From the NCBI GenBank assembly GCA_964016885.1, contig OZ024756.1:25234001-25298000 (forward strand): a DNA stretch of 64,000 nt, in the 5' to 3' direction. How positions within the stretch are numbered: the first letter of the stretch is position 1; every line of letters begins with the position of its first letter. This DNA is from Eledone cirrhosa (lineage: Eukaryota). The notes under the pieces were generated by a model. That model was not told where the DNA came from and did no database searches. It saw nothing but the letters and a program-made list of their open reading frames with translations. The translations under genes were made by a program, and so were the position numbers. Shown here piece after piece: positions 7,833 through 14,472 of this stretch.

Positions 7833-10800
7833 ATGAAATTTTTCCTCGCCATTTTGCTCGTAGCTTCAGTTCAGGCTTTTTCAATCAAAACCATGATTGA
7901 AAGAGAAGGTAAGTGTATTTATTTTTAATTTTACGGAAACTAACTTTAATTCTTTCAAATCTTTATATTATTTCCAATACATACTTCAATCAAATCATAT
8001 TTACTATTTTCTTCTAGGCATTTTACGGTGAATTCTATTTCCAATATATATATATATATTTTCCATCTACTCAATTTACGGTGAAATCTATTTTCAATAT
8101 ATATATATATATATATTGAAAATAGATTTCACCATAAATTGCCTAGAAGAAATTATTAAATATATATATATTCACCCCAGAGCCTTTTCACTCCTACCAG
8201 AGAACCTCTCCCTGATTGGCCTCCACCATTTTCTGTTGTGGTTTTGGCAATGTCATGGGTGTAGCCGTACTCAGCTCGCTTGGCCAATTGCGGGTTGGTG
8301 AAGCTATTTAACCCGCAACTGAGGTATATATATATATATATATATATATATATATATATATATATATATATATATATACAAAGATCGGAATTAAGAGTAT
8401 TCCGCAGTTCACTGTAATAATAATAATAGTATTAGCTCAAAGAAGAATAGAGAATTTTCTTCTGAGCTCAAATGCAAATATATTACACAAAGCTGACTGA
8501 GGATCCTGTGACCTGTTATACTGCACATATCAGTGGTGAAACGAAGCGAGATTCGTATCAGCAAACTTATAGTTATAAGGTTGGTAATTTAAAACTCTAA
8601 TTCAGAGACTTGATTCTGACATAGTTTTTTCCTATTTAATTGCTAAACCTGTAGATATTGTTCTCTATACAGTAACGGTAAAACTCACTTGTAATAATTC
8701 TTTACACACATCTCACTGTGTAACACACTTCTCTTTGTATAATATATATATATATATATATATATAGGCTGGTAAACTCAAAAGATAGATGTACTGATGT
8801 ATAATATATATCTCATAGCTGCTATGTTGTACCAGTTGTCTGAGGACCAGCAGTTTCTTGATATTTATTTATTTACCTATTTTTCTATTTCAAGCTTTCG
8901 ACCTTCTTATTAACACTGCTACCAATGAACTGGAAACCATGGCTATCAAAGAGGTTGAGGAGGCTCTCACCGCCGAAGGTCTTGACGTCACACCATTCGA
9001 ACGCAGGTAGGTCCAACTAGACAATCACATAGTACGCATACTTTACAGAGGTACATTACTGAACCTTAAAAGATGATAGTTTTATACAAATTTGGATATC
9101 TTACAAACATAACTGGCGCTGCCAATAAGTCCAACTAGGCATTACTGAATCTTAAAGGATCATAGTTTTATTTTTATAAATTTGTATAATTAAATGAACT
9201 ATATAATGATTTCCCATTCTTATAGTCAATAAATTAATTATGCATCTTTGCCGCATAGCAGCGTTGTTGAAATATCCAAAGGTGTGAAGAGGGTCGTATG
9301 TAGCAATGACCAATCACGTGATTTGGTGTAGGTGAATGTAAACTGTGTAAATGAAATTGCAGACTTAGTAAAGTTTTGTGTGTGTGTAGTCAGACCAAGA
9401 GTTATTAATAAATAGTCGAACAAGTTGTCGAAATAAATTCTTAATCGTTCCTTGATGTGTCTGTCATGTGTCTTTCTACAGCATTATCCACAAAGTCTCC
9501 ACCACAGTTGGTGGTTCCATCAAGAAGGAAATGACCAAGATTGCATCAGAAGTCACCGCAACCGGAGACTTCAAAGTTGCTGTGAGTTGTATTCATCCTC
9601 TTTCCTTCTTTCTATCTATCTATCTTTACTTTATTTATTTCTTCTTCTTCTTCATCTCCTTCTTTTATTCGTCGTCCATTTATTCTTGGGAGAGTCGTGG
9701 TCGTGGGGGCAGAGTCCTTAAACACTCCCTCTTGCGGATCCTGTCAGAAGCAACTATCTCCAACTGATTCGGCTGGATCCCCAATTGTGACCAGCCAAGC
9801 TCATGGTTGTTATCCAACCATCTTGTTTGGAGCCTACCCCTGGGTCTCCTACCTTATTTATTTATTTCTATCTATCTTTATCTATTTATTTATTTACTTA
9901 CTTTTGTCAATCGCTGCAGTTCATAAAAGAATTAATCTTTATTAATTTGATTGACTCTATCCTGACCGTATTTCAAATGAAATACGCTTTATTTCAATTA
10001 ATTAATGAATTGCCTTGTGGGATTTTCTAAAACTATTAATTATTCTAGAGAGTAACTTAACGTATGTTTCCTAAGTAAATCTATGTTGGCAGATTTTTAA
10101 TTTAAATTGGAATGCTTTAACCCTTTCGTGGCTATATTTTAATGAAATACACCCTCTTTCAATTAATTAATGAAGAATTTTAAAGGATTTACTAAAATTA
10201 TCAATTATTTCATTACTAAGATAATGACTTAACACGTGGTTCTTATATAAAATTATGTTGAAAATTTTAAATATAAATAGTAACCCTTGAGAATAGGTGT
10301 TCAATTTTTGGCAGGTTAGTATTAAAAGGGTCAACTAGCGCCCTTTAAATGGGTGGATTTTTTCATAGAAAAAGAGCCGTTTGGGGCCGGATTGGTATCA
10401 AAAGTGTTAATATATGTTTTCATATTTCACAGGTCGCTGAAGCTATCTTCACAAAGCTCCGTGATGCTGCCTCAATGATGGCTGATGGACTTCACATGGA
10501 TTCTGATACAACAAAAGCCTTTTTCGATGACCTCATGAAAGATATTGAAGCTTTGGAAAGTAAGGACACCAAGAGATTATTAATTTGTGTCTTGATGTAG
10601 GGTGATGGATTGTCAGAATTGGTAGAACGTTGCATAAAATACAATTACAGTATTTGTCCTGGCTCATTACATTGTGAGTTCAAATTCTGCCGACGTCAAC
10701 TTTGCCGTTCATCCTTCCGGGATCGAAAAAAAAGGTTCCAGTCAAGTACTGTAGTTGATTTTAATCAGCTTTGCCCTTCCCCTAAATTAGCTGGTCTTGT

Positions 10801-13800: not shown

Positions 13801-14472
13801 AACGCATTTCATGATGATATTTGTTTTTGAAATGCGCATAATAAAATACTTGGAACTCTTTTAACCATCTTTTGATCTTATATATATATATATATATATA
13901 TATATATATATATATATATATATATATATATATATATATATATATATATATATATATATATATATATATATATATATATATATATATATATATATATATA
14001 TATATATATATATATATATATATATATATATATATATATATATATATATATATATATAGTGGTGGAACAGTGGAAGGTTATATCCGTAGTGGTAGAGTAC
14101 TCAGTCCAAGGGACGAGTTAGGTAGAAGTGGTTACACAACAGTTAGTTCACCATACCGAGAACTCTTGGTATGGTGAACTAACTGTTGTGTAACCACTTA
14201 TATATATATATATATATTCTTGTCTGGCTGTCTGTATGTATATATCAGTGTATATATACACACATGTAAATATATATACGTTACTATTTTCTTTTTCTTT
14301 TTGATAACAGTTCATTGCCCACATCAACCAAGTCAGTGCTAAAGTGGCACAACAAGCTTTGGCTTTCTTCAAACCATGGGCCGCTTCTCTTGGATCTACC
14401 TGGACCACTCTTGTTAAGGACATCCACGATCGTCTTTCTAAGCTACATCCCACCGCCCTCCCCATCTACTAA
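7833..14472 (+). CDS. Gene A: 7-coding-exon secreted precursor, 278 aa (signal peptide + acidic pro-region + KR + His-rich amphipathic domain); family unknown
   Basis: Spliced by hand with GT-AG introns and consistent phases. Exons: 7833-7908 ([25 protein letters not shown]), 8895-9006 ([37 protein letters not shown]), 9482-9581 ([34 protein letters not shown]), 10433-10559 ([19 protein letters not shown]...DIEALE), 11372-11439 ([23 protein letters not shown]), 12314-12505 ([31 protein letters not shown]...LAKT), 14311-14472 ([23 protein letters not shown]...PTALPIY*). The 837-nt frame is open. Exons 1-6 match the sizes in gene B. AATAAA at 14507. Confidence 0.92.
10117..10334. mobile_element. 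Possible piggyBac-like MITE
   Basis: Termini TTAA|CCCTTT ... AAAGGG|TCAA around about 210 bp of AT-rich sequence. Confidence 0.35.
10600..10820 (+). mobile_element. SINE in intron 4 of gene A
   Basis: GATTGTCAGAATTGGTAGAA...GAGTTCAAATTC...GTCAACTTTGCC...AAATTAGAAA family motifs. Confidence 0.7.
12820..12862 (+). ncRNA. Minimal type I hammerhead ribozyme motif (Penelope-associated type) in intron 6 of gene A
   Basis: GTAGTC-CTGATGA-TTTTTAACAAGAAT-GAAAC-GC-GTA-GATTAC. Stem I is 6 bp, the core is conserved, stem III is the palindromic ACGCGT and the cleavage triplet is GUA. Stem II is weak. Confidence 0.6.

Follow-up and report, generated by a model that had tools for sequence, protein, structure and literature searches.

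Comparison of sequences indicates that the end domain encoded by gene A of the octopod Eledone cirrhosa defines an undescribed and unnamed protein family which is not specific to octopuses. Proteins of spiders, horseshoe crabs, limpets and ribbon worms share this domain. Gene A lies in a stretch of 64,000 nucleotides of contig OZ024756.1, which we refer to as the window and whose closest protein matches are octopod. Regarding the function, we tentatively favor, at slightly less than an even chance, a protein of exocrine fluids that is released by a convertase and coats lipid, with its binding tuned to pH by histidines in cephalopods.

Gene structure and precursor

The seven exons of gene A (Table 1) are separated by six introns that all show GT..AG borders and combine to 837 nt encoding 278 amino acids. 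Thus, the original prediction of an intact precursor free of cysteine was confirmed. The exons also bear out the QKR sequence (K169-R170) that is followed by an end domain of 108 residues with nine histidines and an NDT sequon at residues 180-182. The region before KR contains 30 aspartate and glutamate residues against 19 lysine and arginine residues and has a net charge of about -12. Together with the predicted signal peptide this supports a family of secreted precursors with an acidic front part. The net charge of the end domain is approximately +5 at neutral pH and would rise to +14 with all histidines protonated.

Due to its introns gene A is missing as a whole from the track of open reading frames. 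Its exon chain is colinear with octopod gene models at NCBI, where orthologues of gene A and its paralog B are predicted in Octopus sinensis, O. vulgaris and Argonauta, all of them annotated as 'uncharacterized'. For O. bimaculoides a partial model of this octopod gene type is found. Therefore, the gene is real but not cryptic, as it had been called before. The splice junctions are partly backed by RNA, since in relatives the contigs of an RNA run and of another run that is probably RNA span the joint of exons 3 and 4 and carry the expected 24 intervening letters; no other junction was bridged by RNA among the best-supported joints listed. Two further runs cover introns, i.e. represent DNA, and may be the source of this assembly itself.

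Table 1. Features of gene A and paralog B in the window
Feature	Position	Strand	Description
Gene A exon 1	7833-7908	+	start codon; signal peptide predicted from sequence, aa 1-15 (7833-7877)
Gene A exon 2	8895-9006	+	acidic helical front region; orthologue peptide in ink (accessible part of source)
Gene A exon 3	9482-9581	+	front region; splice to exon 4 seen in contigs from relatives
Gene A exon 4	10433-10559	+	front region; joint with exon 3 in contigs of relatives
Gene A exon 5	11372-11439	+	front region; orthologue peptide in ink (accessible part of source)
Gene A exon 6	12314-12505	+	KR 12335-12340; first half of end domain from 12341; NDT sequon 12368-12376
Gene A exon 7	14311-14472	+	second half of end domain; family motif A..FF.P....LG..W; stop codon
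AATAAA, likely polyadenylation signal of gene A	14507-14512	+	
Paralog B	55827-63601	+	same seven-exon plan as gene A; 271-274 aa, three ambiguous splice choices

Paralog B and the locus

A search of the same genome returned paralog B as the sole other match of gene A, with such counts being lower bounds, and the 40 kb on each side of the window (80 kb in total) contained no additional family copy. The two proteins are identical in 156 of 278 columns, i.e. 77 of 170 in the front and 79 of 108 in the end domain. Where the end domain starts, exon 6 of gene A and exon 6 of paralog B (62709-62900) share an identical run of 48 bp. Synonymous differences amount to 11/49 in exon 6 and to 7/18, 13/22, 6/11, 5/13, 0/4 and 16/33 in the remaining exons. 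Moreover, the A and B copies of Argonauta cluster in the tree of exon 6 (support 83/86), whereas in that of exon 7 the B copies cluster. Taken as sequence patterns, these data hint at gene conversion of exon 6 between A and B. A transcript of O. vulgaris (row 55 in the accessible part of the PMC10142993 supplement) contains an open reading frame with an A-type front and a B-type last exon. This is probably an assembly chimera, as exon 6 is nearly identical in A and B.

Between both genes (window 21500-47400) we observed long (CCCTAA)n arrays to the left of a gap of 200 N (38038-38237) and (TTAGGG)n arrays to its right, flanked by an inverted repeat of up to 99% identity. These telomere-type arrays may represent an interstitial telomere block or have arisen as an artefact of the assembly, and together with the gap they render the distance between A and B uncertain. 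The nearest downstream host gene seen is represented by exons on the minus strand approximately 10-37 kb past the end of the window (L008-L010), which we take to resemble a gene for an Rh-type ammonium transporter. Open reading frames of several kinds of non-LTR retrotransposons at 3245-5091, 46234-49155 and 49505-52586 of the window are ordinary repeats; a further one of 1167 aa (L011:1008-4508) lies upstream.

A domain family across protostomes

The profile search covered 1.84 billion representatives and yielded 114 matches. Of these, 36 did not contain an end domain of 35 bits and were excluded from the domain counts; six are fragments of the front region, and most of the others are long helical proteins, which we took as chance matches. 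Outside the cephalopod-like set, which was assigned by likeness with most records being unnamed, 75 copies of the end domain of about 97 residues, distributed over 68 proteins, scored 35 bits or more. The named members belong to a limpet (Patella), a horseshoe crab (Tachypleus), ribbon worms (Tubulanus, Lineus) and many spiders. A profile built from cephalopod sequences only scored at least 30 bits in 86 of 126 other sequences and in none of the 126 reversed sequences. With this profile the members from spiders, Tachypleus, Patella and Tubulanus obtained 48-73 bits compared to at most 12 bits for the reversed sequences, and the Lineus member was weaker (24 bits). At the sequence level these proteins are true homologues of the gene A end domain. 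In all 66 non-cephalopod proteins the last domain copy lies at most 30 residues from the C-terminus. The family motif reads A..ALEFF.PY...LG.LW, and the domain naturally occurs in 2-, 4- and 6-fold tandem forms.

Several traits differ between the cephalopod-like domains and the others. The former have a median of 7 histidines compared to 2 elsewhere (range 0-6), and 35 of 37 carry the sequon in the first helix in contrast to 2 of 71 others. Cysteine is found in none of the 37 and in 6 of the 71 domains, respectively. The non-cephalopod domains are rich in lysine and glutamate and have a median net charge of 0, with some being strongly acidic. Judged by these sequences, the histidine excess and the sequon appear to be cephalopod additions, and histidine-richness had to be given up as a defining trait of the family. 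The front region gave no signal of homology across phyla (3.0% forward, 3.1% reversed), and its origin as a degenerate duplicate of the end domain was rejected (hhalign probability 4.7%).

The spider members of Parasteatoda, Oedothorax and Caerostris are labelled 'laminin subunit alpha-2', whereas those of Tachypleus, Patella, Tubulanus and Lineus are 'uncharacterized'. The laminin-labelled members are short (about 320-560 aa), their end domain is free of cysteine and no EGF or LG domains are among the Pfam domains listed. We therefore reject a laminin alpha-2 identity, as neither the length nor these domains of a laminin are present. Our literature search by accession, motif and topic, with most subscription papers and supplements outside its scope, revealed no paper or title on the family and no described function for the spider, Tachypleus, Patella, Tubulanus or Lineus members. 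Among metagenome contigs none of 113 pattern matches was confirmed, and a search of the ESM Atlas with the octopod end domain gave no usable match. One member (P0153, 73.7 bits) is filed under Acinetobacter baumannii in NCBI nr, which is likely an animal contamination. Besides, three members (P0030 from the limpet, P0035 and P0036) contain multiple G-K/R-K/R sites in the stretch before the end domain. Cleavage at these sites would yield amidated peptides, either amphipathic or short, so that their sequences make them candidates for unrecognized antimicrobial or signalling peptides.

Amphipathic pattern and comparison with named families

The hydrophobic periodicity that had been described for the end domain is clearly above chance. 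None of 500 shuffles reached its local hydrophobic moment (z 4.6), and the in-phase amplitude of the whole domain was 1.42 compared to a maximum of 1.06 in 1000 shuffles, none of which reached it. In the family a single in-phase period of 98.5-98.9 degrees extends across 97 columns, which is closest to 11/3 (relative power 0.95-0.99, compared to 0.70-0.85 for 18/5 and 0.09-0.36 for 7/2), and indels are absent from 92 of the 108 near-full copies of the domain. The autocorrelation of the domain is about equal at 11, 22 and 33 residues, and no internal repeat was found by alignment. Aromatic residues contribute to a wide hydrophobic face, in which the hydrophobic share is 0.92 at 0-45 degrees and falls to 0.59 at 45-90 degrees, and which is interrupted by conserved proline and glycine residues; the two prolines of the gene A domain are 33 residues apart. 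In gene A acidic residues are located on average 48 degrees further from this face than lysine, arginine and histidine (p 0.001, 5000 shuffles). The scored stretch contains eight histidines, at angles of 55-136 degrees, and cephalopod histidines occupy positions at its edge that are held by lysine or arginine in other members. No transmembrane-like stretch was detected (best 19-residue hydropathy 0.8). Structure models were of low confidence (pLDDT 47 and 52), and Foldseek revealed nothing at E<=0.001.

Basic residues at the edge between the polar and non-polar face and acidic residues in the middle of the polar face define the class A helix, which is found in exchangeable apolipoproteins, synuclein and perilipins. 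An 11/3 period is also typical of right-handed coiled coils, group 3 LEA proteins and synuclein. Exchangeable apolipoproteins (apoA-I, apoA-IV and apoE, PF01442) and insect apolipophorin-III (PF07464), a bundle of five long helices, resemble gene A in being secreted, poor in cysteine and all-helical with an 11-mer period, and the former share the class A charge layout with the end domain. In contrast, gene A has its own motif, a conserved dibasic site, a long acidic front region and prolines 33 residues apart instead of regular 22-mers punctuated by proline.

The apolipoproteins are the nearest named look-alikes, with matches that are generic. At E<=0.001 PF01442 was matched by 24 of 66 members (best E 4e-15) and ApoLp-III by 8 of 66. 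However, the PF01442 scores of 24 singly scanned proteins (15-36 bits) were below the curated cut-off of 90 bits. The same was observed for PF07464 with 29.2 bits in the front region of a spider-type member (cut-off 36.3), and octopod proteins did not match PF07464 at E<=0.1. In the profile comparison apoA-IV was found with E 2e-8, but designed helical bundles scored equally well, which means that the likeness reads as 'works like' rather than 'is'. The apolipoprotein hits of the Atlas scored 0.75-0.80 and count as leads only, as all scores below 0.9. None of the members reached the cut-off of any Pfam family that would fit; repeat forms pass a few unrelated cut-offs through summed short stretches, and the scan of single exons gave one weak match among five.

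Tandem helical lipid-binding units released at basic sites are known from nematode polyprotein allergens (ABA-1) as well as from cockroach Bla g 1 and the insect MA repeats. These proteins are abundant in gut or body fluids. For the end domain they represent an analogy only, and none of them is among the Pfam matches listed.

Processing at the dibasic site

A KR or RR is located just upstream of the end domain in 36 of 66 non-cephalopod proteins compared to a background of 2.9% inside the domain, which supports processing. If a single arginine before serine, alanine or glycine is added, the number increases to 47 of 66 (background 9.2%). The site is present in all octopod sequences examined, and its distribution in the wider family overturned the view that KR is specific to octopods. 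Of eight cluster representatives of the cephalopod-like set four have KR or RR and four do not, and in the 4- and 6-repeat forms KR is absent from all linkers. The proposed convertase site is thus conserved beyond octopods and missing in several closer relatives. From the sequence context it is likely that the end domain of gene A is cut free at KR by a convertase.

Occurrence in secretions

In the accessible part of the ink proteome supplement of O. vulgaris (PMC10142993) the orthologue of gene A occupies row 49 of the protein sheet. It is backed by 6 peptides and 11 spectra and occurs in two of three files. We infer that the remaining file is the syringe sample. Of the five peptides among the rows listed there, three belong to the front region and occur in one file and two belong to the end domain and occur in two files; one peptide crosses the junction of exons 6 and 7 by one residue. 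The peptides seen in this part end in lysine or arginine as tryptic products do, and a natural cut after KR is therefore indistinguishable from trypsin. Since front-region peptides occur in ink, the front part may do more than serve as a pro-piece to be discarded. It is acidic as predicted but also amphipathic (z 4.0), which leaves the original description of an acidic pro-region only partly valid. The sections of PMC10142993 available to us report 361 annotated proteins and do not mention the orthologue; its annotation gives Stegodyphus 'laminin alpha-2' as the best match of the octopus transcript. Hemocyanin is also listed there, and the source tissue of the orthologue could consequently be blood or a neighboring organ. 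In the accessible data of a mucus proteome (PMC10138644) at least four family spectra from one raw file all belong to the end domain. No family match was found in the supplements of PMC9712504 (accessible part) and PMC6635378 or in the 393 characters obtained from the PMC12607849 supplement.

According to the accessible part of PMC5553785, weak matches to 'laminin alpha-2' account for 1.6% of the digestive fluid of Stegodyphus (5 of 5 samples) and for 4.8% in Acanthoscurria (8 of 8 samples). Judging from this label, these digestive-fluid proteins may belong to the end-domain family.

Possible functions

Among the functions suggested before, the apolipoprotein-like option fits the sequence data best, considering the 11/3 period and the class A charge layout. 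The predicted signal peptide would route the precursor into secretory granules, and a subtilisin-type convertase would cleave after KR. Until release the acidic front region would shield the end domain, and it would itself be secreted. The lipid-free end domain would be loosely folded as a bundle of helices and would open upon contact with a lipid surface, and its long hydrophobic face would wrap fat droplets or membranes as in exchangeable apolipoproteins. In this way it would emulsify or carry lipid in ink, mucus and possibly gut fluid. As histidines stand at the edge where other members have lysine or arginine, binding in cephalopods would strengthen in acid. The lack of a membrane-spanning stretch and the neutral non-cephalopod domains were counted in favor of lipid coating.

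The released domain could instead permeabilize microbial membranes in ink and mucus, with protonation of histidines as a switch and the acidic front as an inhibitor. Precursor processing, amphipathic helices and a histidine-based pH switch are known from saposin-like proteins such as amoebapore and NK-lysin and from clavanin and piscidin. The opposite charges of the front and the end domain, the presence of family proteins in ink and mucus (in the accessible data) and the putative amidated peptides of the limpet member and two others agree with this possibility. However, the six-cysteine frame of saposin-like proteins is absent, no family match to them was obtained, and the end domain is 4-5 times longer than histidine-rich lytic peptides of the clavanin and piscidin type. 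A membrane-damaging role is also difficult to reconcile with the neutral to acidic charge of non-cephalopod domains and with the N-glycan site in the first helix of nearly all cephalopod-like ones. Strong conservation and only two copies per octopod genome are untypical of most host-defence peptides. A component of a bacterial haemolysin of the ClyA/Hbl type was weakly matched by the profile (E 0.0015), but a deeper profile reduced this match to E 0.029; without a significant match and a hydrophobic membrane-inserting segment, membership in these pore-forming toxins was rejected. Moreover, a screen for antimicrobial peptides in cuttlefish does not show the family motif in its main text, and we found no evidence for the salivary-toxin reading. 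Overall, we regard membrane damage as unlikely, although it ranks second among the possible functions.

It is still less probable that the domain serves as a structural block, in which oligomers or films formed through the 11/3 face stiffen mucus or pack granules and cleavage triggers assembly. The unbroken period and the natural tandem forms would suit such a role, but the wide aromatic face and the conserved proline and glycine breaks are less suited to a fibre than to a bundle or a lipid surface.

We consider it improbable that the domain acts as a LEA-like protectant, shielding enzymes or membranes in secretions that have left the body. It would share the 11-mer period, whereas its large hydrophobic face differs from the hydrophilic LEA proteins and octopus secretions stay wet. 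No LEA family occurred among the 25 of 36 Pfam matches listed or in the single scans. Such a protective role was proposed for three abundant 'LEA-like' proteins which make up approximately 40% of spider digestive fluid in the accessible part of PMC5553785. Finally, chelation of Cu, Zn or Fe by the histidine cluster, for example near melanin synthesis in the ink sac, is very improbable: histidines are conserved among cephalopod-like members and the orthologue is found in the accessible ink data, but they take positions of lysine or arginine elsewhere, and as they are not conserved outside cephalopods, metal binding cannot be the basic role of the family.

Significance

The gene had been predicted before, whereas the family had not been recognized in the sources searched. 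It links a protein of octopus ink and mucus to proteins of spiders, a horseshoe crab, a limpet and ribbon worms which are listed in databases without a name or as laminin. The defined domain of 97 residues can be used as a new profile and corrects the laminin mislabel. If lipid coating by the end domain is true, the family would be a candidate for fat handling in the secretions of invertebrates that do not have bile salts, and the cephalopod domain would offer a natural pH-switchable scaffold for lipid particles. In its broadest form, which we consider doubtful, this would be an ancient undescribed protostome family of lipid emulsifiers released from proproteins, occurring abundantly in spiders' digestive fluid and in a histidine-gated, glycosylated version in the ink and mucus of cephalopods. 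The laminin label would then be false, and these proteins would be a stand-in for bile salts or apolipoproteins in exocrine fluids.
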